A stretch of 64,000 nt of DNA from an uncultured bacterium (GTDB lineage: Bacteria > Chloroflexota > UBA5177 > JANWHV01). Under the pieces are notes generated by a model that saw only the letters and a program-made list of their open reading frames with translations, did no database searches and had not been told where the DNA came from. Of this stretch, positions 23,652 through 48,596 are shown one piece after another. Positions within the stretch are counted from its first letter, which is position 1. Each line of letters begins with the position of its first letter. The DNA lies in assembly GCA_963729625.1 (NCBI GenBank), contig CAVSOU010000009.1, forward strand, positions 88,581-152,580, given 5' to 3'. The position numbers and the translations under genes are program-made.

Positions 23652-23790
23652 TGCTCCAGCGTTTTGCGTCTGGAAAGCAGGCTGAATTGTATCGCACGCC
23701 TATCTGTTTCGCGAGCAGAGCGCTGCCATTCGGGCTGGCAGTTAGGTGGTGCGGCTGCACACCAGATCGGAACGATTCTTGGAGGTAGAG

Positions 23791-27442: not shown

Positions 27443-27534
27443 TTAGCAGTCGTCGGCAAGTAAACTTGAGCACGAATGTGCAAAGCACCTCGAACGTGCT
27501 TGCGTCGAGCTATCAATAAAGGAGTATTCGTAGT

Positions 27535-28545: not shown

Positions 28546-28798
28546 TCCCAGCGTACGATCGAGCTCTTTGTTTGCCGGGCCTGCGTCGAGAGGCGAATGG
28601 TACGGGTGGGTGAGCTGACCTGCGGGTCAGGGACGGTGAATTGGCATGAGCCGTCATGCTCGCTCCAGGCCTGCAAACGAAGGTCATCGAGATTGCGCTG
28701 AGGAGCACGCTCAAGCTGGGGGCAGGTATTCTGCCCCCAGCGAGCGCTCGACAGACGCTGCCGGCCGTCTGCCCGATTTGCCGACCGGAGGGAGTAAG

Positions 28799-29854
28799 AT
28801 GACACCTCGCCAACGGTGGCGAGCATTGCTCGCCGGAGAACGTCCCGATCGAGTTCCCTGTGACTACTGGGGCACTGCCGAAGTCACCGCGCGCCTGCTC
28901 CGCGATCTGGGCTGCGCGGGCGAAAAGGAGCTGTACGAGCGACTGGGCGTGGATAAGTGCATCCACCTTGTGCCGAGCCATCCGACGGTTGCTTCCGACG
29001 GGTGGCACATGCAGTCGCATTTCCAGGTCTGGAACATCGGCACGGAAATGATTTCCTACGGCGACGGACTCGGCGTCTATGAAGAGGCGGTCTCGCATCC
29101 GCTCGCCGGCGCACGTACCGTGGCCGACGTGGAAATGTTCAACTGGCCCAGCGTAGACGTATGGGACTACTCCACGCTGCGCGACCAGTGCGCCGCTTGG
29201 CCCGACAATCCTATCCTTTGCGGCTCCAGCGAGCCTTTCTACCTCTACTGTCGCCTGCGCGGCATGGAGCGTTCGCTATCAGACCTCATCGAATGTCCAG
29301 AAATAGCGGAGTCAATTCTCGAGCATATCTTCGCGGTAGACTTCGCGGTGTTCAGCCGGATCCTGCGCGAAGTGGGCGATCGCATCGATCTCATGTACGT
29401 GGCGGAAGATCTCGGTACCCAAGCCTCTCTGCTGATGAGTCCGCGACTCTTCCGGAGATTCCTCAAACCTCGCATGACCAGGCTGATTGAGCTGGCACAT
29501 TCATTCGGCGTGCGGGTGATGCATCACGACGATGGAGCGATCCGGACCGTGATCCCGGACCTGATCGAGGCCGGAATCGACATTCTGAATCCCATCCAGT
29601 GGCGCTGTGCCGGCATGGAACGCGAGGGCTTGGCGCGGGATTTCGGGTCCCAGCTCGTCTTCCACGGCGGTGTCGACAACCAGCAGACGCTGCCCTTCGG
29701 GACCGCGGCCGATGTGCGCGAGCAAGTGGCCGAGAACATCCTGGCATTTCGCGATGGTAAAGGCTATATCGTGGCGCCATGTCACCACATTCAAGCCAAC
29801 ACGCCGACCGAGAATATCGTGGCCATGTACGCTGCCGTACAGGAGTTCGGCTGA
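28799..29854 (+). CDS. Uroporphyrinogen decarboxylase / MtaA-CmuA family TIM-barrel protein
   Basis: MTPRQR..PDRVP start, LRGME, EDLGTQ, HHDDG, GGVDNQQTLPFGT, APCHHIQ..TPTENI. Confidence 0.85.
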   Translation: MTPRQRWRALLAGERPDRVPCDYWGTAEVTARLLRDLGCAGEKELYERLGVDKCIHLVPSHPTVASDGWHMQSHFQVWNIGTEMISYGDGLGVYEEAVSHPLAGARTVADVEMFNWPSVDVWDYSTLRDQCAAWPDNPILCGSSEPFYLYCRLRGMERSLSDLIECPEIAESILEHIFAVDFAVFSRILREVGDRIDLMYVAEDLGTQASLLMSPRLFRRFLKPRMTRLIELAHSFGVRVMHHDDGAIRTVIPDLIEAGIDILNPIQWRCAGMEREGLARDFGSQLVFHGGVDNQQTLPFGTAADVREQVAENILAFRDGKGYIVAPCHHIQANTPTENIVAMYAAVQEFG

Positions 29855-29983: not shown

Positions 29984-31498
29984 GTGTCACGCTATCTTGC
30001 CGTCGACCTGGGCGCCGAGAGCGGCCGTGTCATGGCCGGCGTGTTCGGCGGTGAGCGCATTGAGCTCGAGGAAATCCATCGTTTTGCCAATATTCCGGTG
30101 CGCACGCCGGACGGCTTGCACTGGGACACTCTGGGCATCTATCGCGAGATCCTGGCCGGCCTTCGACGTGCGTCCGACCTCCATTCCGGAGAATTCGCGG
30201 GCATCGGCGTCGACTCCTGGGGTGTCGACTACGGGCTGATCGACGCGGATGGGCGGCTGCTGGGCAATCCCTACCACTACCGCGATGCGCGCACGGACGG
30301 TATGCCAGACGCTTCCGCGAAAGTCGTCCCCGCGTCCGAACAATACGCGCGCACGGGCATCGCGGCGCTGCAATTCAACACGCTGTACCAGCTCATGGCG
30401 GCCGTTCAATCGGGCGATCGCACGATCGAGCTGGCGCGCAACCTGCTGCTCATGCCGGACCTCATGCACTACTGGCTGTGCGGCGTGCAAGCCTGCGAAC
30501 GAACGAACGGCAGTACGTCCGGCGCACTCGACACGAATGGAACCTGGGCGCGCGACATGATCGAGCGTCTCGGCGTGCCGACCCACATGCTGACAGAGCC
30601 CGTGACCGCTGGGTTCAGGCTCGGCGCGCTCCGTTCGAGCGTGCAGCAGGACAGCTGCCTCGGGGCGGTGCCGATACTATTGCCTCCGACGCACGACACG
30701 GCCTGCGCCGTCGTCGCGGTGCCCGCGGAGCCCGCGCGCGAGGGCGCCGGGCACATGTACCTGAGCTGCGGCACGTGGTCGCTCATGGGGATGGAACTGG
30801 AGAGGCCAAACACCAGCGAGGCGGCACGACTGGCAGGCTTTACAAACGAGCATGGCGCCGGCGGAACGTTCCGCTTTCACACCAACATCATGGGGCTCTG
30901 GCTTCTGCAGGAGTCCCGCAGGGCCTGGGCCCGAAGGGGCTTGCATGCGGACTGGAGCTACCAGGAGCTCATGGAGCGCGCCTCGGCTATCGAGTCCCCG
31001 CACGTGGTTATCGACGTCGATGCGCCCGGATTCCTCCACCCAGACGACATGCCGGCTGCCATCGGGGCGAGCCTCGCTGCTGCCGACCGTGCGCGCGTGA
31101 GCGATCCTGTCTACCTGACGCGCGCGATCCTGGAGAGCCTGGCTGTGGCGTACCGCGTAACTGTCGAGCGCGTCGAACGCCTGACGGGAGTGGCGGTGCG
31201 GACTATCCACATCGTGGGCGGCGGCTCGCGCAACAGCTTGCTGTGCCAGCTTGCGGCCGACGCAACAGGGCGCCACGTGGTTGCCGGTCCAACTGAAGCT
31301 ACCGCCCTCGGCAACATCATCATCCAGACGCTGGGCGCGGGAGAGATCCGCGACATGGTCGAGGCGCATGAGGTTGCTCGCGCATCGGCCCAGGTGACGC
31401 ACTACGAACCGCGCGCAGGCGAAGTCTGGGACGAGCTGCATGCGCGCCTGGTTGGACTACGGGCGGCGGCCCCGAATGCGGGGGCCGACCATAGCTGA
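29984..31498 (+). CDS. rhaB: Rhamnulokinase (FGGY family)
   Basis: AVDLGAESGR, DSWGVDY, HYRD, HDTACA, GFTNE, NIMGLWLLQE, EATALGN. Confidence 0.93.
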   Translation: MSRYLAVDLGAESGRVMAGVFGGERIELEEIHRFANIPVRTPDGLHWDTLGIYREILAGLRRASDLHSGEFAGIGVDSWGVDYGLIDADGRLLGNPYHYRDARTDGMPDASAKVVPASEQYARTGIAALQFNTLYQLMAAVQSGDRTIELARNLLLMPDLMHYWLCGVQACERTNGSTSGALDTNGTWARDMIERLGVPTHMLTEPVTAGFRLGALRSSVQQDSCLGAVPILLPPTHDTACAVVAVPAEPAREGAGHMYLSCGTWSLMGMELERPNTSEAARLAGFTNEHGAGGTFRFHTNIMGLWLLQESRRAWARRGLHADWSYQELMERASAIESPHVVIDVDAPGFLHPDDMPAAIGASLAAADRARVSDPVYLTRAILESLAVAYRVTVERVERLTGVAVRTIHIVGGGSRNSLLCQLAADATGRHVVAGPTEATALGNIIIQTLGAGEIRDMVEAHEVARASAQVTHYEPRAGEVWDELHARLVGLRAAAPNAGADHS

Positions 31499-31613
31499 AC
31501 TGAAGTATTCTGGGATGGCCGTGCTATTGAACGGGCGGAAGGGCTGCGCAGAGAGCGATTTGTAGGGGACGGCGATCCGCGCAGCAGTAGGTAGTGTGAA
31601 GTGGAGCGCGAAA

Positions 31614-32849
31614 ATGGTCGTTGAACAGACGCAGTCGGCCGGGCTGTCGGTCATTGCCGAGGGCCTGACGCGGCAGGGCCGGTCATTGGAAGACGTATTG
31701 GCGCGCCTGCGCGCTCAGCGCATCGAGATGCCAAGTTGGGCATTTGGGAACTCCGGCACGCGTTTCAAGGTGTTCCCGCAGACCGGGGTGCCGCGGACGC
31801 TGTTCGAGAAGCTCGACGACGCCGCGCAGGTGCAGTCGCTCGTCGGCGTGGCGCCAAGCGTCGCCCTGCACATTCCATGGGACCGCGTCGAGGACTGGAA
31901 CGCGGCGCGCCAGTACGCTGGGGAGCGAGGGTTGGCGCTCGGCGCGATCAATCCCAATCTCTTCCAGGATGAAGACTACAAATTCGGCTCGCTGACGCAC
32001 CCGAACGGCGCGGTTCGCGCGAGGGCCGTCGCGCATGTACGGGAGTGCATCTCCATCGCGCAGTCCACGCACTCCTCCCTGATCAGCCTGTGGCTGGCCG
32101 ATGGAACCAACTACCCTGGCCAGGACGACCTGCGGACGAGACGGCAGCGGCTCATCGCCTCGCTGCGGGAGATCTACGGCGATCTGCCCGCCGGCATGCG
32201 CTTGCTCATCGAGTACAAGTTCTTTGAGCCGGCCTTCTACGCCACCGACATCCCCGATTGGGGCACGTCGCTGTTGCTGTGCCAGAAGCTCGGGCCGCAG
32301 GCCCAGGTGCTTGTCGACCTCGGTCATCATGCCGCCGGGGCCAACATCGAGCAGATTGTGGCCACATTGGTCGACGAAGGGCGGCTTGGCGGCTTCCATT
32401 TCAATGCGCGGAAGTACGGTGATGACGACCTCATCGTCGGCACGACCAATCCGTTTGAGCTGTTCCTGATTTACAACGAGCTCGCCGCGGCGGAGGACGA
32501 TCCGGTTGCAGGCGCGGCGACGCGAGAAGTCGCGTACATGATCGACCAGTCGCACAATGTTGAGGCAAAGATTCCGGCAATGATACAGTCGATCGTCAAC
32601 TGCCAGATCGCGTATGCGAAGGCACTGCTCGTCGATCGAGGCGCCCTGAACGAGCTTCAGCAGTCCGGCGACGTCGTCGGCGCCCTGGGCGCCGTAATGG
32701 CCGCGTTCGAGTCGGATGTGCGCCCACTGCTCGTCCAACTTCGGACTGAACTAGGGCTTCCGGCCGATCCGCTGGTGGCCTTTCGCCAAAGCGGCTATCA
32801 GGAACGCGTCGCCGCGGAGCGCGTGGGCGGCACGCCGATGAGCTGGTAA
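31614..32849 (+). CDS. rhaI: L-rhamnose isomerase (RhaI type)
   Basis: PSWAFGNSGTRF, LHIPWD, EYKFFEP, DLGHH, DQSHN. Confidence 0.95.
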   Translation: MVVEQTQSAGLSVIAEGLTRQGRSLEDVLARLRAQRIEMPSWAFGNSGTRFKVFPQTGVPRTLFEKLDDAAQVQSLVGVAPSVALHIPWDRVEDWNAARQYAGERGLALGAINPNLFQDEDYKFGSLTHPNGAVRARAVAHVRECISIAQSTHSSLISLWLADGTNYPGQDDLRTRRQRLIASLREIYGDLPAGMRLLIEYKFFEPAFYATDIPDWGTSLLLCQKLGPQAQVLVDLGHHAAGANIEQIVATLVDEGRLGGFHFNARKYGDDDLIVGTTNPFELFLIYNELAAAEDDPVAGAATREVAYMIDQSHNVEAKIPAMIQSIVNCQIAYAKALLVDRGALNELQQSGDVVGALGAVMAAFESDVRPLLVQLRTELGLPADPLVAFRQSGYQERVAAERVGGTPMSW

Positions 32850-32864: not shown

Positions 32865-33188
32865 ATGGAACGCTATCTGCAAATCGTGCGCGTCAAGCCG
32901 GAGTACATCGAGGAGTACGAGCGCATTCACCGAGAAGTGTGGCCCGGCGTGCTGGCCACGATTCGCGCGTGCAATATTCGTAACTACTCGATCTATCGCT
33001 ATGGCAAAGTGCTTATCGCCTACTTTGAGTACGTTGGCCAGGACTACAAGGCGGACATGGCCAGGATGGCTGCGGATCCCGTGACAAAGGAGTGGTGGAC
33101 GCATACTGACCCGATGCAGGAGCCGGTGCCCGAGCAGAAAGCGGGTGAGTGGTGGCTGCGGCTGCCGGAGGTGTTTCACGTCGATTGA
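32865..33188 (+). CDS. rhaM: L-rhamnose mutarotase
   Basis: EEYERIHREVWP, NYSIY, EWW, EVFH. Confidence 0.92.
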   Translation: MERYLQIVRVKPEYIEEYERIHREVWPGVLATIRACNIRNYSIYRYGKVLIAYFEYVGQDYKADMARMAADPVTKEWWTHTDPMQEPVPEQKAGEWWLRLPEVFHVD

Positions 33189-33357
33189 GCGCGCCGCGGC
33201 ACTTGGCGCCGAACCGTCGCTGGTTGTAACATATTGTCACAGTATGTAATACTCTGATGAGCGACCGAACTGATGGGGCTGCTCCGATCTGGCCGGTGTT
33301 CGTGGGCGCTAATCGAATGAGAGCCGGCGGCCGGCGTCGCCGCAATGGGAATGGCAG

Positions 33358-34662
33358 ATGGCAGTCGAACGCGATCCACTGGCCGCGCTGAAGATGCTGG
33401 GTGACCTCTCTGGTCCGCGGAGTCGGGCGGCGGATGCGCCCAGGCGACTCAAGGTGAACGCGCACATACACATTCCGCCGAACTTCTCCGCGTTTAGCAG
33501 CGTCAGGGAGGCGGTAGAGCTGGCAGCGGCGCAGGACGTCCGCGTGGTGGGGGTAAGTAACTACTACCATTTCGGCGCATACGCAACGTTCGCCGAGCAC
33601 TCGCATGCGATGGACGTGTTCCCGCTTTTCGGCCTGGAGGTCATCTGCCTTCTCGACGATCTCGTGCAGGCGGACGTCAAGATCAACGATCCGGGCAACC
33701 CGGGCAAGATGTACCTCTGCGGCAAGGGCGTGACGCGGTTTGCACCGATGTCCGGCGATGCGGTGGGTCTCATGGATACGATCCGCCGCAATGATTCCAC
33801 GCGGATCGCCACCATGATCGAACGGGTCGCCCGCCTGTTCGAGGACGGCGGCGTGGACACCGGTGTAACCGAGGCGTCGGTGAAGGCCGCGATCGTCCAG
33901 CGCCACGGGTTACCGCTGGACACGATCTACTTGCAAGAACGCCACGTGGCTCAGGCCTTTCAGGAAGCCGTGTTTGCGCGTGTTTCCCCCGAAACGCGGA
34001 CTGCGACACTGCGGGCCGTCTTCGGCTCGGACCCTGGACCCGGCCTCAACGAAGCGGTGAGGCTACAGAGTGCCATACGCACGCATCTCATGAAGGCGGG
34101 CAAGCGCGGTTACGTGGACGAGACCTTCGTGGGCTTTGACCATGCCTATCGGTTGATCCTGGCGCTGGGCGGCGTGCCGTGTTATCCCGTGTTGGCGGAT
34201 GGCGCTGCGCCGATCTGTCCGTTCGAGGATCCGCTGGAGCGCCTGGTTCGGTCGCTCAGGGACCGGCGCATCTACTGTGCCGAGCTCATCCCAAACAGAA
34301 ATTCTCCGCAGGTGCTTGCTGCATACGCGCGGGGGCTGCGCGCCGCCGGCATCGTGGTGCTGGCGGGCACCGAGCATAACACGCTGGAGATGCTGCCGAT
34401 GGAGCCGCAGTGTGCGGGAGGCATTCCGATCCCGGAAGCGATCAAGGAAGTCTTCTGGGAAGGAGCGCTCGTGGTGGCCGCGCACCAGTACTTGACCGCG
34501 AACGGACAGATGGGCTATGTGGACGAATCCGGAGCGCTGAACCCAGCCTACACGAGCGGCGAGGCACGCATCGAGGCGTTTGCCCAGCTCGGGGAGTCGG
34601 TTATCCAGCGATACGGACGGGTCGCTTGCGCGTCTGCATCAGTCTCGGGTAGAGGATGTTGA
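33358..34662 (+). CDS. PHP-domain-like metalloprotein of unknown function
   Basis: NAHIH N-terminal motif, FGLE, ERH, GTEHN C-terminal motif. Confidence 0.7.
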   Translation: MAVERDPLAALKMLGDLSGPRSRAADAPRRLKVNAHIHIPPNFSAFSSVREAVELAAAQDVRVVGVSNYYHFGAYATFAEHSHAMDVFPLFGLEVICLLDDLVQADVKINDPGNPGKMYLCGKGVTRFAPMSGDAVGLMDTIRRNDSTRIATMIERVARLFEDGGVDTGVTEASVKAAIVQRHGLPLDTIYLQERHVAQAFQEAVFARVSPETRTATLRAVFGSDPGPGLNEAVRLQSAIRTHLMKAGKRGYVDETFVGFDHAYRLILALGGVPCYPVLADGAAPICPFEDPLERLVRSLRDRRIYCAELIPNRNSPQVLAAYARGLRAAGIVVLAGTEHNTLEMLPMEPQCAGGIPIPEAIKEVFWEGALVVAAHQYLTANGQMGYVDESGALNPAYTSGEARIEAFAQLGESVIQRYGRVACASASVSGRGC

Positions 34663-36715
34663 TGACGTCAACGATGCACTGGCCGGCGTTCACGGGAGCG
34701 CCGAGCCCCCTGGAGATACTCGTCGAGCTCTCTCGTTTCTTCGGATCTGACCCGGAGCTGGTGCTCGCCGGCGGCGGCAACACCTCGGTCAAGCTCGACG
34801 ATCGGCTGCTGGTCAAAGGCAGCGGGCACGCGCTGGCCACGATTGGCCCTGAGGGGTTCGTGGATCTCAATCGCAAGACCCTTCAGGTGCTTCTGGAGAG
34901 CGACCTGGGCAGCGCGAGGGACCAGCGCGAGGCCGCCTTCAAGCACGCCGTCCTTTCGGCACGACGAGAACCGGAGAAAGGGCAACGACCCTCGGTCGAG
35001 GCCGTTCTGCACCATCTCATGCCGGGACGTTTCGTCATTCACCTGCATGCAACGCTCGTAAACGAGTTCAGTTGTTGTCGGGAAGGCAAGCGACTCGTCG
35101 AGCAAAGCCTGGGCGACGATGTTCTCTGGATCGACCTCGTGGATCCCGGCTTCGCGCTCGCCAAGTCGCTGCAGCACGGGCTCGCGGCGTTCCAACGCAG
35201 AACAGGCAAGAACTGCCCACGCGCGTTGATCATGCAAAACCACGGACTCGTGGTCAGCGGCGATACGCCTGATGAGATCAGAGAGCGCATGGAGTGGCTG
35301 TTCGCATCGCTTCGAGACATTCGGGTGCACGCCTGCGTTGAGCAGCCGGGTCCGATTGAGACCGTCGTTGCCGTCGCCGAGGCGTCGGCGCTCGTGAACA
35401 TCATCGCGCCGGCGCTGCGCGGCCTGCTCAGCGTCGGGCAATCGCTGAAGGTGGTCACGTTCGACGATTCGGACGCGGTGCTGGGCCTGGTTTCGCGCGA
35501 GGCAGGCCAGTACGACTGCGATGGGTGGGCCGCTCACGCCCGACCAGATCGTGTACTGTCGATCGTTTCCACTGTGGTTCGAGACGAGAGTCGGCGAGAC
35601 ACGCTTCCGACCTGGTGCAGCGGCTCACGGCGGCGGTGCGTGAGCACGCGGCCACCTACAGCGTTCTGCCGAATGTGGTGTTGGTCCAGGGCCTCGGCCT
35701 GTTCGCGTGCGGCGACGCCTGGACCGACGCAAACATCGTGCGCCTGGTTTACGTCGACGCCATCAAGATCATGGCCGGCGCCGCCGGAATGGGCGGCGTC
35801 CAGTACCTCGATGCCGACTTCAGGAGCTTCATCGAGCAGTGGGAAGTCGAGTCATACCGCCGGCAGATAGCGGCCTCCGCGACCGGAAGGGGCCGGGCGG
35901 CGGGGAAGGTCGCGATGGTGACCGGAGCCGCGCAGGGATTCGGATTGGAAATAGCCCGGGATCTTGCCGCGCAGGGTGGCCACGTCGTGCTATCCGACGT
36001 CAATGTGGAGGGAGCGCGCCAGGCGGCTGCGGCCCTGGTGGGCCGGTTCGGCGAAGGTCGGGCGCTCGGCCTGGCCATCGATGTGACCAACGCTGAGTCG
36101 GTCGCGGAGGCCGTGCACCGGGTGGTTCGCATGTACGGCGGCCTTGACGTGCTGGTCTCCAACGCGGGTGTCCTTCGCGCCGGCAGCGTGAAAACGCAAC
36201 TGGAGCGGGACTTCGACCTCTCGACCGCGGTCAATTACAGGGGTTACTTTCTTTGCGTGCAGAAGGCGGCGCCCATCCTGGCCGTCCAGCACGAGGTGCG
36301 CCGCGACTACTGGAGCGACATCATACAGATCAACTCCAAGTCGGGCCTCGAGGGGTCGAACAAGAACTTTGCCTACGCTGGCAGCAAGTTCGGCGGCATC
36401 GGCTTGACGCAGTCCTTCGCGCTTGAGCTTGTGACTGACGGCATCAAGGTGAACTCCATCTGTCCGGGAAACTTTTTCGACGGACCGCTGTGGTCCGACC
36501 CAGACACGGGTCTGTTCGTACAGTATCTGCGCACGGGAAAAGTACCGGGCGCCACCACGATCGAGGACGTCAAACGTTTCTACGAGAGCAAGGTGCCAAT
36601 GGCTCGAGGATGCACATCCGCCGACGTGATGTCGGCCATTTACTACCTTATCGAGCAGCAATACGAGACGGGTCAGGCGCTTCCAGTGACCGGTGGACAG
36701 GTGATGTTGCACTAG
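34656..36715 (+). CDS. Class II aldolase-like domain fused to sorbitol-6-phosphate 2-dehydrogenase (SrlD)-like SDR; interrupted by two +1 frameshifts (~35510, ~35600)
   Basis: GGGNTSVK, PSVE, HLH, QNHG; GPLTPDQIVYC in a third frame from 35521; then TGAAQGFG, IIQINSKSG, YAGSKFGGIGLTQSFALEL, KVPMARGC, TGGQVM. Confidence 0.85.
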
Positions 36716-36743
36716 TCGCGACAAGGCGAGTAGCGGAAAGACA

Positions 36744-38459
36744 ATGCACATGACGCAACGTGACGCGGCCGTTCCTACGACGCAATTCGCCGTTCAGTTG
36801 GTTGGACCGGGCCAACTGGTATTGAACGCGAAGAAGGATGTTCTCCAGCCTGGTCCGCACGAGATCTTGGTGAAGGTGGATGCCGTCGGCCTCTGCTTCT
36901 CGGACCTGAAGCTGCTGAAGCAGTTCTCCGCTCACCCACGCAAAGGCGAGATCGTCACGGGTATCGCCCGCGAGGTGCTTGACTCGTGCCCCAGCTACGT
37001 GCCAGGCGACAAGCCCAGCGTGCCGGGACATGAAGTGGCCTGCCGCATTGTGGCGGTGGGCGATGCGGTCCAGCGCCATCGGGTCGGCGAGCGGTGCCTG
37101 GTGCAGACGGACTATCGCGGCCTCAAGACGCTCGGATCGAACGCCGCGTTCGGCTATAACTTTGAGGGCGGTTTGCAGGAGTATGTTCTGCTGGATGAAC
37201 GCGTCACAGTCGAGGCCGCTACGGGAGAGCGCTATCTGATCCCCGTGCCGGAGACGTTGGGTTCCTCGGCCGTCGCTCTGGTTGAACCGTGGGCTTGCGT
37301 CGAGGACGCCTACGCCCACGCCGACCGACGGACCATACTGGCGGGAGGACGTCTTCTGGCAGTCGCCGACGCCGGACACCAGGTCATCGGCCTTAGGGAA
37401 GCGGTTGCGGCGAGTGGTGGCAGTGTGTCGGTCACGGCCGTCACTGCCGATCCGGACCAACGGGGCGGCCTTGAGGCTCTCGGCTTCCCAATCGTGTACG
37501 CGGATCGGATTCAGGATCTGGTCGATGAAGGCTACGACGACATTGTGTATTTCGGCGCCTCAAAAGAGTCGATCGAGGTACTGAACAATAAGCTGGCGTC
37601 CTTCGGCATTATCAACATTGTGCTTGGCGGCGAGACGATCGGCCAGTTGGTGTCGGTAGGCGTCGGCCGTATCCACTACGGCTTTACGAGATGGATCGGC
37701 ACGCCGGGACCGTCGGCGGCCGACTCCTACGCGATCATTCCTGAATCGGGCGAGTTGCGACCGCGCGACAAGGTACTGGTGGTCGGCGCCGGTGGGCCGA
37801 TGGGACAGATGCACGTGATTCGCGGCCTGTGCTCTCAGATCGACGGGCTCTCGGTCGTGGGTACCGACGTGGACGACGCGCGGTTGGAATCGCTGCGGCG
37901 AAAGGCCGAGCCGCTGTCACTGCGCAATGGTGTACCGTTGCGGTTGGTCAATACGGCCAAGGCTCCGCTCGACGAGCGCTTCAGCTACCAAATCCTCCTG
38001 GTTCCGGCCGGAGCGCTGGTGGCGGCCGCGATCCAAGCCAGCGACGACGGCGGCCTGATAGACATCTTCGCCGGCATTCCTGCTCCGACGCGTCACGACC
38101 TCGATCTGGACACGTACATCGCGCGCCGCTGCTACATGTTCGGCACCAGCGGCTCGGATATTCGCGACATGAAGATCATGCTCGACAAGGTGAACTCTGG
38201 GCAGCTGGACACGAACTGTTCGGTCGACGCGATATCAGGAATGGCGGGCGCGATTGACGGCATCGGCGCGGTGGAGAATCGCACGATGGCGGGGAAGATC
38301 GTCGTCTATCCGATGCTTCACGACGTCGGATTGATTTCCCTGGCCGAGCTCGGCGATCGATTTCCCACCGTGGCTGCGAAGCTTGACGCGGGACAGTGGT
38401 GCAAAGAGGCGGAACAAGAACTGCTCCGGGTGACCGCCGCGGTCAGCCCGAGCGTCTAG
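36744..38459 (+). CDS. MDR-family Zn dehydrogenase, L-sorbose-1-phosphate reductase (SorE)-like, extended
   Basis: GLCFSD, GHE, EPWACV, GAGGPMG, FAG, GTSGS, KIVVYP, WCKEAEQELL; no structural-Zn Cys4 lobe. Confidence 0.8.
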   Translation: MHMTQRDAAVPTTQFAVQLVGPGQLVLNAKKDVLQPGPHEILVKVDAVGLCFSDLKLLKQFSAHPRKGEIVTGIAREVLDSCPSYVPGDKPSVPGHEVACRIVAVGDAVQRHRVGERCLVQTDYRGLKTLGSNAAFGYNFEGGLQEYVLLDERVTVEAATGERYLIPVPETLGSSAVALVEPWACVEDAYAHADRRTILAGGRLLAVADAGHQVIGLREAVAASGGSVSVTAVTADPDQRGGLEALGFPIVYADRIQDLVDEGYDDIVYFGASKESIEVLNNKLASFGIINIVLGGETIGQLVSVGVGRIHYGFTRWIGTPGPSAADSYAIIPESGELRPRDKVLVVGAGGPMGQMHVIRGLCSQIDGLSVVGTDVDDARLESLRRKAEPLSLRNGVPLRLVNTAKAPLDERFSYQILLVPAGALVAAAIQASDDGGLIDIFAGIPAPTRHDLDLDTYIARRCYMFGTSGSDIRDMKIMLDKVNSGQLDTNCSVDAISGMAGAIDGIGAVENRTMAGKIVVYPMLHDVGLISLAELGDRFPTVAAKLDAGQWCKEAEQELLRVTAAVSPSV

Positions 38460-38615
38460 GCGCGCCCGCTGGCCACGGGCTCGTGCCTGAGGTTGGACGG
38501 GTCGCCCGGATGAAATATCTGTGAGGTAACGATGACAAGTCGCACGTCATATCGTGCCGGTGCCGTATTGCCGCGGCACCTGCCGGATCTCGTTGTGCGA
38601 GAAGGGTTCCACTAG

Positions 38616-39992
38616 ATGGCGACAGTGGTCGAAATGCCGAAGCTTGGCAACACCGTCGAGGAGTGCCTCCTGGCGGCATGGCGAAAACACAAAGGCGATA
38701 CCGTTGCCGAGGGCGAGATCATCGCCGAGATTGAGACTGACAAGACCAACTTTGAGATCGCGGCGCCGGTGGCCGGCACACTCCTGGAGACGTTTTTCGA
38801 AGAGGGGGCGCTCGTTCCCGTCTTCACGAGTCTCTGCGTGATCGGCACGGCAGGCGAGGACGTCGAAGCTTTCCGGCCGCGCACTGCCGCCGACGGCACA
38901 GTTGTTGCTTGGAGCGGTGAAGCATCCGGCGGAAGCTCCGTACAGGCCAGTCCGGCCGTGCAGACGGCGCCGAACGTGGGATTCGCACCCGGTGCGCGTA
39001 CGGCGCCACTTGCGCTGGGCCCGTTGAGCCCGCGGGCGCGACGGTTTGCCCGCGAACACGACTTTTACCCGGAAGCGGTAACGGGAAGCGGGCCGGGCGG
39101 CAGAGTCCTGGAGGGAGATCTGCGCGATCTCTACATGTCCTCGCCGCGCATCTCGCAGGCGGCAAGGCGACAGATGACACAGGGCTCGGTGGCGAATGGC
39201 GCCGGATCCGGCATCGGCGGCATGATACGCGCGGCCGACCTGACCGAGCCATCCACGCAGCGCCCGGCAGCGCCGCAACCGGCATCGACCACTGTCGAAC
39301 GCGGCTCTACAACAGGCGAACGCCTGTCTACGACCCGCGAGCGGATCGCGAAGCGCCTGCGGGAGTCCTTGAACTCAACCGCCCAGTACACGCTGAATGG
39401 CTCGGCCAACGCCGGCGGATTGCTTGCGGTGCGGAAGAAACTCAAGAGCTCGAGCACATCTGCCGATATCAACATCAACGACCTGGTGGTCTTCTGCACC
39501 GTACAGGCGCTCTTGGAGCTCCCTGACCTGAATGCCGAATTCATCGACGGCAGGTTGTGCCGACATGCCGAGATTCACATGGGATTCGCGTGCGACACGG
39601 ACCGCGGTCTCGTCGTTCCCGTCATCCGGGACTGCCAGAACCTGTCCTTGATCGGGATGGCCAGGCGCATGAAGGAGCTGGCCGCGCAGGCGGTCCAGGC
39701 GACCATTGCCGTCGACGACCTGAGCGGTGGAACGTTTACCGTCAGCAACCTCGGCAATCTCGGGATTGAGTCGTTCACGCCGGTGATCAATCCGCCGCAA
39801 GTGGCAATTCTTGGCGTGAACGCCATTCAGCTCAAGCCCGTGCGAAAACCCGACGGGAACATCGAGTTCATCGATTCCATAGGGTTGTCGCTGACCCTGG
39901 ACCATCAAGTTGTCGACGGCGCCCCGGGCGCGAGATTCTTGAAGGTCCTGAGGCACAAGATCGAACACGTGGAGGCGCTGTGTACGATTTGA
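38616..39992 (+). CDS. Dihydrolipoamide acyltransferase (E2)
   Basis: Lipoyl motif ETDKT, E3-binding SPRARRFARE..GSGPGGRV, GTFTVSNLG, catalytic DHQVVDG. Confidence 0.95.
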   Translation: MATVVEMPKLGNTVEECLLAAWRKHKGDTVAEGEIIAEIETDKTNFEIAAPVAGTLLETFFEEGALVPVFTSLCVIGTAGEDVEAFRPRTAADGTVVAWSGEASGGSSVQASPAVQTAPNVGFAPGARTAPLALGPLSPRARRFAREHDFYPEAVTGSGPGGRVLEGDLRDLYMSSPRISQAARRQMTQGSVANGAGSGIGGMIRAADLTEPSTQRPAAPQPASTTVERGSTTGERLSTTRERIAKRLRESLNSTAQYTLNGSANAGGLLAVRKKLKSSSTSADININDLVVFCTVQALLELPDLNAEFIDGRLCRHAEIHMGFACDTDRGLVVPVIRDCQNLSLIGMARRMKELAAQAVQATIAVDDLSGGTFTVSNLGNLGIESFTPVINPPQVAILGVNAIQLKPVRKPDGNIEFIDSIGLSLTLDHQVVDGAPGARFLKVLRHKIEHVEALCTI

Positions 39993-41323
39993 TCGTGATC
40001 GGCGCCGGCCCAGGCGGCTATGAGGCGGCCGCGCACGCGGGTCAGATGGGCAAGAGGGTGGCCCTCGTCGAGAAGGAGCGGATCGGCGGGACATGCCTGA
40101 ACGTTGGCTGCATTCCCGCGAAAGCGTTTTTGCGCTCATCGCGTCTGTATCGCGAATGCGGCGAAGCCGCGTCGTTCGGCGTGCGGATCGATGGATTCAA
40201 GTTTGACATGCCTGTGGTCGTCGAGCGCAAGAATCGCATTGTCGGTGTGCTCGTGAAGGGCGTTGAGGGCTTGCTGAAGCGCTCCGGCGTCGAGGTCTTC
40301 ACCGGCCACGCCCGATTGACTGACCGCAAGCAGATCCAGGTCGGCGCGGAGCGACTCGAGGCCGCCAACATCCTGATCGCGACCGGTTCTCGCCCGGCGG
40401 TGCCCCCGATTCCGGGCATCGATGCCCGGCAAGTCCTCGATTCGAACTCGGTGTTCGATCTCACGGATGTCCCGGCCAGGGTCGCGATCATCGGCGGTGG
40501 TTACATAGGGCTCGAGTTCGCCTCGTTCTTCAAGGAGATCGGAACGGAAGTCACGGTGTTCGAGATGTTGCCGCAGATTGCCGGCGGCTGCGACGGCGAC
40601 GTCGCAAACCGCCTTCTGCAATCGCTAAAGCGCAGTGGAGTCGCAATCAACCTCTCGTGCCGGGTGCTTGGAATCGAGGCCGGGACGATACGGTACGTCG
40701 ATGGCGCCGGTGCCGATCAGACATATTCGGCGGCCACCATCCTGAACGCAACCGGCCGGGCGCCGGTCGTGCAGGATCTCGGGCTCGAGGTCGTCGGCGT
40801 CGATTACAGCTCCAGAGGCATCCGGATCAGCGATCAGGGCAGGACAAACGTCCCAGGCGTGTGGGCGTGCGGAGACGTCACCGGGCAGCACATGTTGGCG
40901 CACGTCGCAACGCGTGAGGGGATTGTCGCCGTGAACGCGATGTTCGGGAAGCCGGACCGGATTCGTTATGATGCCATTCCTGCTGTCATCTACACGCATC
41001 CCGAAGTGGCCATGGTTGGCCGCACCGAGGAGGAGTTGAAGGCCGCGGGCGTCCCATACAAGAAGGCCATGGTGCCGATGGGCGTAGCGGGTCGATTCCT
41101 CATCGAGAACGAAAAAGGCGTCGGGTTCGTCAAGGTGCTGACGGGCGCCGCCCATGGCGAGATTCTTGGCGTGCACGCGATGGGCGACTCATCCAGCGAG
41201 TTCATCGTCGCCGCGGCCGCCCTGATTGAATTTGAAATGCTCGCGTCTCACGCTGCTGAAATTGTCTTCCCGCATCCCACCGTGTCGGAGGCGTTGCGAG
41301 AGGCCATTCTCCAGGTCCAGTAG
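39980..41323 (+). CDS. lpdA: Dihydrolipoyl dehydrogenase (E3)
   Basis: GAGPGGY, GGTCLNVGCIP, GGGYIGLE, HPTVSE. Confidence 0.95.
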   Translation: MYDLIVIGAGPGGYEAAAHAGQMGKRVALVEKERIGGTCLNVGCIPAKAFLRSSRLYRECGEAASFGVRIDGFKFDMPVVVERKNRIVGVLVKGVEGLLKRSGVEVFTGHARLTDRKQIQVGAERLEAANILIATGSRPAVPPIPGIDARQVLDSNSVFDLTDVPARVAIIGGGYIGLEFASFFKEIGTEVTVFEMLPQIAGGCDGDVANRLLQSLKRSGVAINLSCRVLGIEAGTIRYVDGAGADQTYSAATILNATGRAPVVQDLGLEVVGVDYSSRGIRISDQGRTNVPGVWACGDVTGQHMLAHVATREGIVAVNAMFGKPDRIRYDAIPAVIYTHPEVAMVGRTEEELKAAGVPYKKAMVPMGVAGRFLIENEKGVGFVKVLTGAAHGEILGVHAMGDSSSEFIVAAAALIEFEMLASHAAEIVFPHPTVSEALREAILQVQ

Positions 41324-41335
41324 GAGTGAAGAATA

Positions 41336-43795
41336 ATGACCAAGTCGCTGATTATCGAACCCGAGAAGGCTTTCGCAAAGGATGCCATTCATCTGTGCGA
41401 TATTCCTGTCAATGCATACCAGAAGAGTGTGAAGGACGAGCTCACGCGCTTTACGCCGGAGGACTTCCTGGACATCTGGCGGGACATGTGCGCCATCCGG
41501 GAATTCGAGACGATTCTCAATGAGATCAAGATCAAAGGTGTCTACCGGGGCATCACCTACAATCACGCGGGGCCGGCTCACCTCTCCATCGGGCAGGAGG
41601 CGTCGGCGGTCGGCATGGCGTTCACCTTGACGCCGGATGACCACATCTACGGATCGCACCGCAGCCACGGCGAGATCCTTGCCAAGGGATTCTCCGCCAT
41701 CCGCCGGTTCAGTAGCGACCAGCTGCTCGCGATCATGCGCTCCTACCGTGACGGAGCCATTCTGGCGCCGGTCGAGAAGCGATACAGCGGGTCGGTCCGG
41801 GACCTGGCGTTCAGATTCTTCGTCTATGGCGCGTACAGTGAGATTTTCGCGCGAGAGACCGGCTTCAACCGTGGCCTGGGCGGCTCGATGCACGCGTTCT
41901 TTGCGCCGTTTGGCATCTACCCGAACAACGCCATCGTCGGCGGATCCGGATCCATTGCCCCGGGAGCCGCGCTCTACAAGCGAGTTAACCGGAAGCCGGG
42001 TATCGTCGTGGCCAACATCGGCGATGCCTCATTTGGCTGCGGCCCCGTCTGGGAAGGCATCACGTTTGCCAGCATGGACCAATACAGGAAGCTGTGGGAC
42101 CAGTCGCTGGGCGGTGGCCTTCCGATCATCTTCAACTGTATGGACAACTTCTACGGGATGGGCGGCCAGCCCAACGGTGAGACGATGGGCTGCCAATTCA
42201 TCGCGCGGCTCGGCGCCGGAGTCAATCCCGAGCAGATGCACGCGGAACGGGTCAACGGCTACGACCCACTCGCGGTAATCGACGCCTTTCTGCGCAAGAA
42301 GCAAACGCTCCAAGAGGGTCTGGGCCCTGTGCTGCTTGACACCATCACGTACCGGATCAGCGGGCACTCACCGTCGGACGCCTCGAGCTACCGGTCGAAG
42401 GAAGAGGTCGAGCACTGGCAGGCCGCAGACTCACTGCGCTCGTACCATGAGCGCATGGTCGAGAGCGGCGTGCTGAGCGCCGATGTTCTGGACGCGGCAC
42501 AGCGTGATGTCCAGGAGGCGGTGTTCTCCATGTTCGAGCTGGCAGTGGATCTTGAAGCCAGCCCGCGCGTGCAGATGAGCTCCGAGCTGGTGGGAAGCGT
42601 CATGTTCTCGAACCGGCGAGTAGACCGGTTCGACGATCGCGAGCCGGAGTTCCTGCAGGATCTCGCGGAGAATCCCCGCGTACAGCAGATACGCGGCAAG
42701 GTGCGCACTGCCTTCCAGGAAGGCAAGCCGGTGCCGAAGATGAAGATGTTCAACATTCGGGACGGCATCTTCGAGGCCATGCTGCACCGCTTTGCCATCG
42801 ATCCGACGATGGTCGCATTCGGCGAGGAGAACCGGGATTGGGGCGGTGCGTTCGCCGTGTACCGCGGGCTGACTGAAGCCCTCCCGTACCACCGGCTGTT
42901 CAACTCTCCGATATCGGAAGCGGCAATCGTGGGCGCCGCCGTGGGGTACGGAATGGAAGGTGGCCGCGTCGTCGCCGAGCTCATGTACGCCGACTTCATG
43001 GGTCGGGCAGGCGATGAGATCTTCAATCAGCTGTCGAAGTGGCAGTCGATGTCGGCCGGAATGCTGAACATGCCTGTGGTGCTGCGCATATCCGTCGGCG
43101 CCAAGTATGGAGCCCAGCACTCGCAGGACTTCACGGCGCTCGCGGCCCACATCCCAGGCCTCAAGGTCGTGTACCCGGTGACTCCCTACGACGCCAAGGG
43201 CATGATGAACGCCGCGCTTGCAGGCACCGACCCGGTCGTCTTCTTCGAAAGCCAGAAACTCTATGATTTCGGCGAGATGTTTGAGGCCGATGGCGTTCCT
43301 GTCGGCTACTATGAAATCGACCTGTCCGAGCCTTCGGTCAAGCGCAAGGGGAAAGATCTGACGATCGTGACGCTCGGGCCGGCTCTGTATACGGCGACCG
43401 CCGCCGCCGACGACCTGGCTGCGAAATACGATCTCGCGGCGGAGATTGTCGACCTGCGCTCGGCCAACCCGCTGAACTACGATGTGCTGGCGGAGTCGGT
43501 GCGGAAGACCGGCAAAGTTCTGCTGGTCTCCGATGCGGTGGAGCGTGGAAATGTCATGCAGAACGTAGCGTCGAACATCACGCAGCTTTGCTTCGACGAC
43601 CTCGACGCGCCGCCGGTGGTAGTGGGCTCTCGAAACTGGATCACTCCCGCGGCGGAGCTCGAAACGATGTTCTTCCCGCAGCCTGGGTGGCTGTTGGACG
43701 CCGTGCACGAGCAGATACTGCCTCTTAAGGGGCATCAGTCCGAGACCAACCGCACGCGAGGCGAACTGATGAGACGCGCGCGGCTCGGCGTGTGA
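41336..43795 (+). CDS. Fused E1 alpha/beta TPP-dependent dehydrogenase (acetoin/2-oxoacid dehydrogenase family)
   Basis: [21 protein letters not shown] motif, YRISGHS; beta part [22 protein letters not shown]. Confidence 0.93.
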
Positions 43796-43796
43796 C

Positions 43797-44453
43797 GTGA
43801 TCGCTGCAGTCATCTTCGACATGGACGGCCTGCTGATCGACAGTGAACCGTTGTGGGAAGCGGCAGAGATGGTCATCTTCCCGTCTCTTGGCGTGCCGCT
43901 CACGCCCGCAATGAAGAAGGAAACCACTGGGCTGAGACCGGAGGAAATTGTCGACTATTGGTACTCGCGCTACCGGTGGACTGAGCCCTCGGTCGCCGTG
44001 GTGGCCGGGAGGCTTGTCGATCGGCTGGTCGAGCTCGTCAGGGAGCGAGGCGTCTTGCGCGAGGGCGTGCGCCAGGTGCTCGACATCTGCTCGCATGCCG
44101 GACTGCCGTTGGCCATCGCGTCCTCTTCACCGAAGGCGTTGATTCAGGCGGTACTGGCCAAGTTTGCCATTGCAGACTACTTCACTGTCGTGCAGTCGGC
44201 CGAGCTCGAGCCATATGGAAAGCCACACCCGGGAGTCTACATAACGACGGCTCGGAAGCTGGGCATACGACCAGAGCAATGTCTTGCGTTCGAGGACTCG
44301 CCGAACGGCGTTGTATCTGCGAAGGCGGCGAAGATGGCGTGCGTAGCGGTTCCCGATGAGGCTCTGAGAAGTCACCCAGCTTTCAGCATTGCCGACAAGG
44401 TGCTGGCCACGCTTGCGGACTTCGACGCTCACATGCTGATCGAACTGAGCTGA
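43797..44453 (+). CDS. hxpB: HAD-IA hexitol/2-deoxyglucose-6-phosphate phosphatase (HxpB/YniC-like)
   Basis: FDMDGLLIDSEPLW, GLR..VDYWY, KPHPGVY, EDSPNG; closely follows E. coli YniC as I recall it. Confidence 0.85.
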   Translation: MIAAVIFDMDGLLIDSEPLWEAAEMVIFPSLGVPLTPAMKKETTGLRPEEIVDYWYSRYRWTEPSVAVVAGRLVDRLVELVRERGVLREGVRQVLDICSHAGLPLAIASSSPKALIQAVLAKFAIADYFTVVQSAELEPYGKPHPGVYITTARKLGIRPEQCLAFEDSPNGVVSAKAAKMACVAVPDEALRSHPAFSIADKVLATLADFDAHMLIELS

Positions 44454-44476
44454 CCGGCCATTTAGCCGGTCAGCTC
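44447..44476 (+). terminator. 12-bp hairpin closing the plus-strand rha/dehydrogenase gene run
   Basis: GAGCTGACCGGC-CATTTA-GCCGGTCAGCTC. Confidence 0.65.
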
Positions 44477-46301: not shown

Positions 46302-46382
46302 ACTACGCCTCCACCTGCACCTGCGTCGTGAGAGACCTCTACAACGTGCCCGCCACCCCCGCTTGTGCCTCTTCCGCCGTAT

Positions 46383-47435: not shown

Positions 47436-47464
47436 CAGCGTGAGCGAAACCGGCTTGACGAGCG

Positions 47465-48529: not shown

Positions 48530-48596
48530 AAGGGCCGGCCAACCACAGCACGATCGTACCTAAGGCCCGTCGCTTACCTATAGAGAGGGAGGATCC

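Follow-up and report, generated by a model that had tools for sequence, protein, structure and literature searches.

What becomes of L-rhamnulose 1-phosphate in a bacterium whose rhamnose genes run, on one strand, into the genes of a complete thiamine- and lipoamide-dependent dehydrogenase complex? The question is raised by a stretch of 64,000 nucleotides (the window; G000:C9:88581-152580) in the metagenome-assembled genome (MAG) G000 of an uncultured Chloroflexota bacterium, an assembly of 5.4 Mb in 21 contigs that is 87% complete and 5% contaminated. Behind the rhamnose mutarotase gene rhaM, seven genes encode a PHP-fold protein, a class II aldolase fused to a short-chain dehydrogenase/reductase (SDR), an oversized zinc-dependent medium-chain dehydrogenase/reductase (MDR) that we call MDR571, the E2, E3 and E1 components of the complex, and a HAD-type phosphatase. 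We propose, with a probability of about 0.4, that positions 33358-44453 form a self-contained catabolic module that handles L-rhamnulose 1-phosphate in place of the bifunctional enzyme RhaEW, and maybe L-fuculose 1-phosphate too, by a redox flip of the sugar phosphate followed by cleavage of the resulting ketol. That the complex acts on a sugar-derived ketol and not on pyruvate is, in our judgement, somewhat probable. Gene content, conservation, the exchange with RhaEW, natural fusions and folds were observed, and from these we infer which substrates are used, in what order the steps run and what is formed.

All of these genes lie on the forward strand, in the order that a preliminary description of the locus had given. 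The rhamnulokinase-like FGGY kinase gene (rhaB-like, 29984..31498; TIGR02627 399 bits, cut-off of 528 not reached), the L-rhamnose isomerase gene rhaI (31596..32849; TIGR02635 586 bits, above the cut-off of 531) and rhaM (32865..33188; PF05336 119 bits) are followed by the genes for the PHP-fold protein, a member of an unnamed family with 434 residues (33358..34662), the aldolase::SDR fusion (34656..36715; Pfam Aldolase_II and adh_short) and MDR571, which has 571 residues (36744..38459; of the Pfam families, ADH_N alone). The complex comprises an E2 dihydrolipoyl acyltransferase (38616..39992; Pfam Biotin_lipoyl, the peripheral subunit-binding domain (PSBD) family E3_binding, and 2-oxoacid_dh), an E3 dihydrolipoyl dehydrogenase (39980..41323; TIGR01350 466 bits, above the cut-off of 409) and a thiamine-diphosphate (ThDP) E1 with its alpha and beta parts fused into one chain of 819 residues (41336..43795; Pfam E1_dh, Transket_pyr and Transketolase_C). 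The last gene encodes an HxpB-type HAD hexitol/sugar phosphatase (43797..44453). Five junctions overlap or are shorter than 30 bp, as had been claimed (PHP/aldolase -7, aldolase/MDR571 28, E2/E3 -13, E3/E1 12 and E1/phosphatase 1 nt), and the remaining two, rhaM/PHP and MDR571/E2, measure 169 and 156 nt. The closing hairpin of the preliminary description is likewise present: it is GC-rich, overlaps the stop codon of the phosphatase gene (44447..44476, forward strand) and has a 12-bp stem and a folding energy of -29.1 kcal/mol (z = -4.9) that none of 200 shuffles equalled. It has no T-run, and a consensus terminator scan of 33000-45000 returned no sites; the hairpin is likely the end of the operon.

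Comparison within the genus indicated what these genes stand in for. Besides G000, the genus sample contained four genomes. Two of them (G163 and G172) carry a rhamnose locus in which rhaI is divergent from a whole run that reads ABC transporter genes, DeoR, a canonical RhaEW gene (869 and 873 bits) and rhaB, and neither genome had a match to the PHP-like protein. G000 and a third relative (G190) carry rhaI-rhaM-PHP-aldolase::SDR-MDR571-E2-E3-E1-HAD and have no match to the RhaEW model TIGR02632 at E<=1e-80, while the fourth (G127, 83% complete) has neither RhaEW nor the module. Since RhaEW is present in one pair of genomes, the module in the other, and both in none, the module, judged by gene content, occupies the place expected for RhaEW in this genus.

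The same pattern was seen more widely. Among 401 sampled genomes of the phylum, a tally that includes the unpublished genome G038, six had the PHP-like gene; the five besides G000 all encoded a fused E1 (38-85% identity) and MDR571 (51-60%), and in four of the five E1, MDR571 and PHP lay on a single contig within about 19 kb. RhaEW above the cut-off was found in none of the six module genomes compared with 100 of the 401 overall, counts that are given without statistics, the module genomes being akin to one another. In a second actinobacterial family (GC 68-72%) the module is arranged as two divergent halves, with E1 and then E2 on one strand and PHP, aldolase::SDR and MDR571 on the other, and in genome G300 rhaI, rhaB, an ABC transporter and DeoR lie between two module halves. 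Several lineages thus show the module in linkage with genes for rhamnulokinase and rhamnose isomerase. A cluster without conservation would have spoken against the preliminary description; the seven genes behind rhaM recur as a unit, and on this comparative evidence we regard them as a conserved unit, not a chance neighbourhood.

Given that the module sits where RhaEW is expected, the relation of its aldolase::SDR fusion to RhaEW is central. The gene in the window is broken by two +1 frameshifts. Aligned by tblastn to an intact orthologue (L013:3385-5466), it falls into three pieces in three frames: residues 1-293 at 34662-35510, 295-322 at 35515-35598 and 324-693 at 35603-36712, with identities of 65%, 82% and 81%. 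The shifts follow about 35510 and about 35598; each joint has four bases where three are expected and neither is a homopolymer, and outside the joints the fusion is 65-82% identical to the orthologue, with no stop codons. Three module genes of the relative G190 have frame breaks too: the PHP-like gene lies in three pieces and the aldolase half of the fusion in two overlapping ones, and MDR571 is also affected. Both genomes are assemblies of about 20 contigs. On these grounds we lean towards assembly error. No public sequencing run was found to contain the stretch 34700-36700 (the best share was 0.11).

The intact orthologue aligned to TIGR02632 over model positions 2-670 of 676 with 334.3 bits, the cut-off of 567.75 not being reached, and the pieces from the window scored 108.8 and 207.2 bits on the same model. 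A genome-wide search of G000 gave no TIGR02632 match above the cut-off, and the orthologue reached none of eleven NCBIfam models for a 'bifunctional aldolase/SDR'. The fusion is about 30% identical to the canonical RhaEW of the same genus. On the basis of the full-length alignment at a score below the cut-off, we classify the fusion as a RhaEW paralogue and its SDR half as a RhaW homologue, an assignment made from sequence; the earlier statement that RhaW is missing from the locus was therefore too strong. The same half had been called SrlD-like, and the sorbitol-6-phosphate dehydrogenase model (SrlD, NF009050) was indeed its best standalone-SDR model. Its scores of 229.8 bits (window open reading frame) and 227.7 bits (L013) nevertheless lie below the cut-off of 307, and this likeness is common to genuine RhaW, according to Rodionova et al. 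(2013; PMC3870299).

MDR571 combines an ordinary catalytic core with an unusual size. It has the features of a zinc-dependent MDR: a GroES-like catalytic domain, Cys/His/Glu zinc ligands and a Rossmann GxGxxG motif, with C51, H96, E97 and the motif glycines G348, G351 and G354 (motif 348-354) invariant in 45 sequences. The AlphaFold2 (AF2) model (pLDDT 91 for the PHP-like protein discussed below and 95 for MDR571) matched by Foldseek the secondary-alcohol and polyol dehydrogenases 4c4o, 6ie0, 1pl6 and 2dq4, with target-normalised TM scores of 0.7-0.8 in alignments that span about 530 columns, although the targets have about 340 residues. The protein is about 220 residues longer than ordinary MDRs, the surplus being an additional Rossmann-like domain of about 200 residues, placed at roughly 200-335 in the model. 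Its structural neighbours comprise carbonyl reductases and butanediol, sorbitol and threonine dehydrogenases, enzymes that, going by the model, would place MDR571 among those that make or reduce ketones beside a CHOH group. The label 'SorE-like' given to it earlier thus holds at the level of the zinc-MDR superfamily and not as SorE orthology, the best NCBIfam model being IolM at 40 bits.

A metagenome scan seeded with MDR571 gave 597 matched stretches, of which 540 were relatives, and the following counts come from the 80 loci kept. An SDR gene lies directly upstream of MDR571 in 26 of the 50 loci with at least 2.7 kb of upstream sequence; the aldolase domain is present in 21 of these 26 and absent from five, all five of which have E2 and four E1. 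With at least 4.5 kb upstream (33 loci), PHP-like genes were found in 20, rhaB-like genes in 13, E1 in 15 and E2 in 17, and with at least 8 kb (25 loci) the figures were 10 for rhaB-like genes, 14 for E1 and 12 for E2; at least one of the three is present in 21 of 25 and none in four. The kinases adjoining MDR571 resemble rhamnulokinase and share 38-48% identity with the rhaB product of the window; DeoR homologues flank the module in L100, L102 and L120. Locus L120 packs FGGY kinase, E1, DeoR, E2, E3, PHP, a 371-residue SDR, MDR571 and a lipoate-protein ligase into one compact unit, with no Aldolase_II domain within 21.6 kb. As five of 26 loci and L120 are without it, the aldolase domain is dispensable in some lineages. 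Two other loci (L147 and L182) have an FGGY kinase, PHP, MDR571, an E. coli-type RhaA (about 690 bits) and a separate Aldolase_II gene, to which L147 adds E1, E2 and FucI, and L182 a separate SDR, a DeoC/LacD aldolase and an RPE-family ketose-phosphate 3-epimerase. Families of epimerases (RPE) and of class I aldolases/transaldolases thus go with the set elsewhere.

Natural fusions were found among the MDR571 relatives, which number 970 cluster representatives at E<=1e-3 and 252 at E<=1e-30. We observed one case of MDR571::SDR and one of Aldolase_II::MDR571, the latter in a 90% cluster with four members. In two independent proteins (P0250 and P0252) MDR571 takes the place of the lipoyl domain before a PSBD and a catalytic domain of the E2-like kind, whose catalytic His has become Gln in one protein and Arg in the other. 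Such a protein looks like an inactive scaffold in the style of the E3-binding protein, one that would tether the dehydrogenase to a lipoamide complex. Rare as they are, these fusions tie MDR571, at the level of domain architecture, to the SDR, the aldolase domain and the core of the complex. A complex prediction for MDR571 with E2 residues 1-235 scored 0.00 against a mark of 0.32, which is not evidence either way. The E1 adjoining MDR571 elsewhere is only 28-61% identical to that of the window, which implies that the partnership is older than the E1 clade of the window or has arisen repeatedly.

We then considered the complex itself, which the preliminary description had likened to acetoin dehydrogenase. 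The architecture of ThDP-dependent E1, lipoyl protein and E3 agrees with this at the superfamily level, while the more specific comparisons do not. E2 scored 63.8 bits on the AcoC model NF011457 (cut-off 307), with the lipoyl domain alone covered, and its catalytic domain is the classical PF00198 (2-oxoacid_dh, 223 bits). The lipoyl TDK motif (T41, D42, K43) and the catalytic D429 and H430 are invariant. E1 and E2 gave their best scores on pyruvate dehydrogenase (PDH) models without reaching the cut-offs (TIGR03182 178 vs 394, NF006667 225 vs 321, TIGR01349 270 vs 445), and in the PDB the E1 chains of PDH and of branched-chain 2-oxoacid dehydrogenase (BCKDH) were matched about equally well. 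Aligned to human PDH E1 alpha, E1 retains the ThDP motif, the GHS histidine and the HRSHG arginine and has an insert of about 46 residues at 121-168, features that do not discriminate between substrates. No profile or structure evidence placed E1 closer to Aco than to PDH/BCKDH, and a homologue search with its alpha part brought up nothing beyond partial and nearly complete copies from that clade, with no named split relatives among them.

The idea that this complex is the only PDH of the cell was rejected: G000 has two other intact E2 genes, with a split E1 beside one of them. No AceE-type E1 was found in G000. Two small contigs of the MAG (G000:C13:18118-22099 and G000:C18:1047-5422) carry extra E1- and E2-like genes, each split over several frames, which suggests low-quality contigs or contamination.

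Of the two proteins without a place in the complex or among the dehydrogenases, the phosphatase is the more readily named. It scored 248.3 bits on NF008087 (cut-off 191; model positions 7-219 of 222), in agreement with the HxpB-like assignment made before, and it is kept behind E1 at 74% identity in G190, the one other module copy of the genus that was examined. Among 80 E1 loci (see below), one weak match (28% identity, L051) was the only other instance. The PHP-like protein matched no Pfam family at E<=0.001, PF02811 included, and no NCBIfam model, so that the earlier assignment to PHP stands at the level of fold and without the Pfam signature. Foldseek matched its AF2 model to 3e0f, 9etk, 3o0f and 2yb1 (E 1e-7 to 1e-8, probability 1.00, target-normalised TM 0.65-0.72), the closest being PHP phosphoesterases of the TrpH/RNase AM/Cv1693 type, and in the nearest Atlas clusters 12% of members carry PF02811. 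Across 30 sequences H36, H38, E94, H196, E339, H340 and H376 are invariant, plus several Arg and Lys. We take the metal ligand set of PHP proteins to be His-x-His, Glu, His, His and Asp-x-His; no C-terminal Asp-x-His was seen at the level of the sequence alignment. The family has at least 1990 members, labelled 'hypothetical'.

A second PHP-like copy in G000 (C11:785016-786266; L097:10011-11318, reverse strand; 54% identity) immediately precedes clpB and is co-directional with it. Genes for an MMPL transporter, a TetR regulator and an arabinofuranosidase-like protein lie around it, with no MDR571, SDR or E1 among them, and a matching copy is found in G190 (C12:439686-440957).

To see the complex outside the module, we followed the E1 clade across phyla. 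An E1-seeded scan matched 331 stretches, 311 of them relatives, from which the best 80 loci were retained. The window's E1 shares 75-85% identity with the proteins of these 80 loci, which come from several phyla (labels include Acidimicrobiales, Dormibacterota, Bryobacterales/Terriglobia, Chloroflexia, Rhodospirillales, Streptosporangiaceae and Vicinamibacteraceae), and its closest relatives are labelled Acidimicrobiales. In the 61 of these loci with at least 4.5 kb upstream, E2 was always near E1 (61/61) and E3 mostly (49), followed by a TAL_FSA-family gene, usually directly upstream of E2 (29), an ordinary zinc alcohol dehydrogenase (Zn-ADH) of the Tdh/IolM-like type (13), PHP-like genes (12), MDR571 (9) and rhaB or rhaI (4). 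The expectation that this clade would co-occur with the reductase, SDR, PHP and rhamnose genes was borne out for the module, which recurs with rha genes, and for a minority of these E1 loci. Further recurring neighbours are GFO/IDH/MocA oxidoreductases, xylose-isomerase-like TIM proteins, FucI-like isomerases, a GH28-like protein and TonB-type outer-membrane proteins. The adjacency of TAL_FSA genes would fit a ketose-phosphate or tetrose-phosphate partner.

Other arrangements around the E1 clade were also recorded. In L010, L011, L015, L024, L048, L059 and L078 (Dormibacterota, Chloroflexia and some Actinomycetota), E2-E3-E1 lies in a distinct conserved cluster, with a phosphoenolpyruvate (PEP)-utilizer mobile-domain protein, a molybdenum cofactor (MoCo) aldehyde-oxidase-like protein, a cyclase and a Zn-ADH upstream, and UPF0261, a ComB-like phosphatase, an aldehyde dehydrogenase, TAL_FSA, IclR, a Tyr-phosphatase-like protein, a second UPF0261 and a PEP-hydrolase-like protein downstream. 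In Bryobacterales (L016, L019, L030, L032, L035 and L039), genes for a Zn-ADH, an aldolase::SDR (about 35%), a PHP-like protein (about 30%) and a myo-inositol-1-phosphate-synthase-like protein lie on the strand opposite E2-E3-E1, all four in line in L016 and L019 and as subsets in the other loci, some of which are cut by contig ends. A GH28/rhamnogalacturonase-like gene directly precedes E2 in L016, L019, L032, L035 and L039. In Acidimicrobiales the myo-inositol-1-phosphate-synthase-like gene was dropped as a candidate module part, as it sits 3' of E1 among housekeeping genes (panB, dnaB).

A scheme that joins these observations begins with the two dehydrogenases. MDR571 and the SrlD-like SDR would together perform one reduction (at C2) and one oxidation (at C5), moving the carbonyl from the phosphate side to the methyl side by way of a deoxyhexitol phosphate and yielding a 1-deoxy-2-ketohexose 6-phosphate, a methyl ketol. 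The E1-E2-E3 complex would then split the CH3-CO|CHOH bond, much as acetoin dehydrogenase splits acetoin, to give acetyl-CoA, NADH and a tetrose 4-phosphate. By Fischer projections, rhamnulose 1-phosphate would lead to 1-deoxy-D-sorbose 6-phosphate or 1-deoxy-L-fructose 6-phosphate and, if the stereochemistry is of the SorE type, cleavage would release D-threose 4-phosphate. Were the class II aldolase-like domain to act as an AraD-type C4 epimerase, the route would instead run through 1-deoxy-D-psicose 6-phosphate to D-erythrose 4-phosphate; alternatively, this domain may serve an aldol branch. Fuculose 1-phosphate would pass through 1-deoxy-D-tagatose 6-phosphate and 1-deoxy-D-fructose 6-phosphate to erythrose 4-phosphate, and since no FucA-type aldolase was found in the window, it may feed the same module. 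The HxpB-type phosphatase could be a relief valve for the hexitol-phosphate intermediate, and a TAL/FSA-family partner might use erythrose 4-phosphate or else make or split 1-deoxy-fructose 6-phosphate from hydroxyacetone and glyceraldehyde 3-phosphate (GAP).

We favour this flip scheme because it uses most of the observed facts: the place of RhaEW, the two dehydrogenases, a complex with intact motifs, the fusions and the phosphatase. The pathway of the preliminary description, of which it is an elaboration, gained from the conserved unit, the exchange with RhaEW, the aldolase-less copies, the fusions and the retained phosphatase, and lost weight where the labels SorE-like and SrlD-like proved to hold at a more general level. 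Together, these data lead us to regard the module as a real, conserved and uncharacterised deoxy-sugar module, for which that pathway is the best available hypothesis, unproven as it is. A broader version, in which the flip is a widespread third 6-deoxyhexose route without lactaldehyde, the MDR being bound physically to the E2 core in some organisms, and E1-E2-E3 with TAL/FSA in Acidobacteriota and other soil phyla is a hub that converts methyl ketols to acetyl-CoA and an aldose phosphate (for example, hydroxyacetone and GAP to 1-deoxy-fructose 6-phosphate and on to acetyl-CoA and erythrose 4-phosphate), is doubtful, if worth keeping in mind.

Several points weigh against the flip. Its redox steps and the E1 step are predictions from gene content and comparison. 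MDR571 matches no polyol-phosphate dehydrogenase model (the best NCBIfam hit, IolM, reached 40-43 bits), E1 has the usual motifs of 2-oxoacid E1 enzymes and its best scores on PDH/BCKDH sequences, and no feature of the E1 sequence marks a phosphate-bearing or sugar-phosphate substrate. The PHP-fold protein has no step in the scheme, and its paralogue stands beside clpB, away from any sugar genes. In the assembly the fusion gene carries frameshifts, so the module may be non-functional in G000. That fusion is homologous to RhaEW over its full length; in translation, its aldolase half retains Glu, His-x-His and His, presumably at the places of the metal and acid-base ligands of class II aldolases, and ordinary aldol cleavage by this domain may persist. 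G000 has two further class II aldolase genes. According to PMC3870299, RhaEW alone turns rhamnulose 1-phosphate into dihydroxyacetone phosphate (DHAP) and L-lactate with NAD+ and forms no product without it, activities demonstrated for the Chloroflexus and Bacillus enzymes, and the resemblance to SrlD is reported there for genuine RhaW too. Finally, PMC4187192 and PMC4510573 describe that rhamnose fermentation by Caldicellulosiruptor saccharolyticus yields 1,2-propanediol, acetate, H2 and CO2 in the ratio 1:1:1:1 and that its rhamnose-induced cluster Csac_0865-0876 contains a 'pyruvate/2-oxoglutarate dehydrogenase' gene, Csac_0872. These products fit aldol cleavage or an FSA-type split to hydroxyacetone, and not acetyl-CoA from the methyl end, under the conditions tested.

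These points raise the question of whether cleavage by the aldolase comes first. The fusion would then split rhamnulose 1-phosphate into DHAP and L-lactaldehyde, MDR571 and the SDR would turn the C3 unit into a methyl ketone (lactaldehyde to 1,2-propanediol and hydroxyacetone, or to methylglyoxal), and E1-E2-E3 would cleave it to acetyl-CoA and a C1 unit or act after an FSA-type addition to GAP. FSA takes hydroxyacetone as donor, and the TAL_FSA neighbours of the E1 clade (29/61) could bind such a unit. The full-length RhaEW homology with its retained metal and acid-base residues, the aldolase domain in 21 of 26 SDR-adjacent loci and as a separate gene in L147 and L182, and the resemblance of MDR571 to butanediol and secondary-alcohol dehydrogenases all agree with this order of events, and so does the propanediol of C. 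saccharolyticus (PMC4187192). However, the operon of the window has no TAL_FSA gene, direct cleavage of hydroxyacetone would free formaldehyde for which the cluster has no detoxifying gene, and the aldolase domain is lacking in five of 26 loci and, despite a kinase, within 21.6 kb in L120. A hexitol-phosphate dehydrogenase as the best standalone model of the SDR half, an attached hexitol-phosphate phosphatase and the ketose-phosphate 3-epimerase of L182 also speak against it, and we consider aldolase-first cleavage unlikely, though a serious contender. If instead the fusion were a working RhaEW that yields L-lactate, the complex could be an ordinary 2-oxoacid dehydrogenase that takes the C3 product to acetyl-CoA, with MDR571 and PHP accessory or unrelated. 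The standard domains and motifs of E1, E2 and E3 and their best scores on PDH models would be explained in this way, and rhamnose regulons enlarged by lactate dehydrogenases are described in PMC3870299. Yet both E1 and E2 fall below all PDH equivalog cut-offs (178/394, 225/321 and 270/445), neither the operon nor the window contains a lactate dehydrogenase family, and G000 has other E1 and E2 sets. The complex is moreover inherited together with PHP, SDR and MDR571 at E1 identities as low as 28-38%, and the MDR571::E2-like scaffold argues for a substrate common to the MDR and the complex; a plain 2-oxoacid dehydrogenase is thus improbable.

The last reading to be weighed keeps the complex on sugars or acyl units but makes the link to rhamnose secondary, for example with a non-deoxy ketose phosphate giving glycolyl-CoA by a C2 transfer of the QncN/QncL type. 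In its favour, rhaB or rhaI accompanies the E1 clade at just 4 of 61 loci, where TAL_FSA, GFO/IDH/MocA, xylose-isomerase-like TIM and FucI-like proteins are neighbours, and a separate context pairs the complex with Zn-ADH, MoCo oxidase, UPF0261 and aldehyde dehydrogenase. Against this stand the rhamnulokinase-like kinases beside MDR571 (38-48% to the window's rhaB), RhaI or RhaA in several lineages, and the exchange with RhaEW within a single genus, and we regard it as very improbable. The redox flip of rhamnulose 1-phosphate followed by ketol cleavage hence remains our preferred reading of the module.

Parts of this scheme have counterparts in known systems. In the L-sorbose pathway, the ketose-1-phosphate reductase SorE (a zinc MDR) and the hexitol-6-phosphate dehydrogenase SorD/SrlD (an SDR) act in succession, and the module would likewise use one zinc MDR and one SDR to move the carbonyl from the phosphate end to the far end. 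It differs in that its SDR is below the model cut-off, MDR571 is oversized and the product, a 1-deoxy-ketose, would be barred from direct entry into glycolysis. The acetoin dehydrogenase AcoA/AcoB/AcoC/AcoL cleaves CH3-CO-CHOH-R to acetyl-CoA and an aldehyde; the two systems share ThDP E1, lipoyl E2 and E3, encoded apart from the housekeeping complexes, and the proposed chemistry is alike, whereas the E1 of the window is a single fused chain and its E2 has the classical 2-oxoacid_dh domain. In the biosynthesis of tetrahydroisoquinoline antibiotics, QncN/QncL (NapB/NapD), a PDH-like E1 with a lipoyl carrier, take a C2 unit from a ketose phosphate and not from a 2-oxoacid. That system, compared by description, is biosynthetic and delivers a glycolicacyl unit to an acyl carrier protein, without a CoA-forming catabolic E2/E3 complex. 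RhaEW (YuxG, Caur_2283; Rodionova et al. 2013, PMC3870299) shares the class II aldolase, linker and SDR architecture with the fusion; the setting in a rha locus behind rhamnulokinase and RhaI, with a DeoR regulator, is also common to both. The window's fusion differs by its score under the cut-off and its constant association with PHP, MDR571 and E1/E2, and in some lineages the SDR occurs without the aldolase domain. The Csac_0865-0876 cluster, compared by description, shares a rhamnose isomerase, an aldolase and the PDH-like Csac_0872. Its expression rises on rhamnose and its occurrence goes with the ability to grow on this sugar, in an organism that excretes 1,2-propanediol 1:1 from rhamnose.

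Rhamnose and fucose are major sugars of plants, algae and mucins, and the textbook bacterial routes for them are of two types, phosphorylated with aldol cleavage (RhaD, FucA, RhaEW) and non-phosphorylated. In a literature search that left most subscription journals outside its reach, neither the module nor a thiamine/lipoamide cleavage of deoxy-ketose phosphates turned up in any paper. New here are the exchange of RhaEW and the module within a genus, the counts of aldolase-less copies, the MDR571::E2-like scaffolds and the TAL_FSA context of an E1 clade that crosses phyla. If the flip is true, the known routes would be joined by another that differs in carbon and redox yield: the methyl end would become acetyl-CoA and NADH and not lactaldehyde, propanediol or lactate. 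Predictions of deoxy-sugar use from the genomes of soil, peat, gut and oral bacteria would change, the range of substrates taken by 2-oxoacid-dehydrogenase-type complexes in catabolism would come to include sugar phosphates, and three large unnamed families, the PHP-like proteins, MDR571 and the clade of fused E1 proteins, would gain functions. Should the specific chemistry prove wrong, the module would still be a clearly delimited and expressible target for biochemistry.

The genes around the module complete the picture of the locus. A DeoR-family regulator (22745..23551, forward strand; Pfam HTH_DeoR and DeoRC) heads the operon and is followed, on the same strand, by the ATPase, two permeases and binding protein of a sugar ABC transporter (23746..28545; Pfam ABC_tran, BPD_transp_2 twice and Peripla_BP_4). 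Between the binding protein and rhaB, within the rhamnose operon, lies a gene for a URO-D/MtaA-like protein (28646..29854, forward strand; PF01208 73 bits, with MtaA-type NCBIfam models far under their cut-offs), which could be a demethylase of O-methylated deoxy sugars. A further URO-D-like fragment was seen near the stand-alone PHP-like copy (L097:85-855).

On its other side the module adjoins a fucose-type cluster (44745-54426). It begins on the opposite strand with an FGGY kinase (XylB model 360 bits, cut-off of 380 not reached) and a HAD-IIA gene and continues with LacI, an L-fucose isomerase of 605 residues, a xylose-isomerase-like TIM protein, an SDR, a Zn-ADH and an aldo/keto reductase. 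At the end of the window (62001-64000), GC content falls to 0.57, compared with 0.61-0.66 elsewhere, over an NHL-repeat open reading frame (62215-63999) whose 3' end is open.

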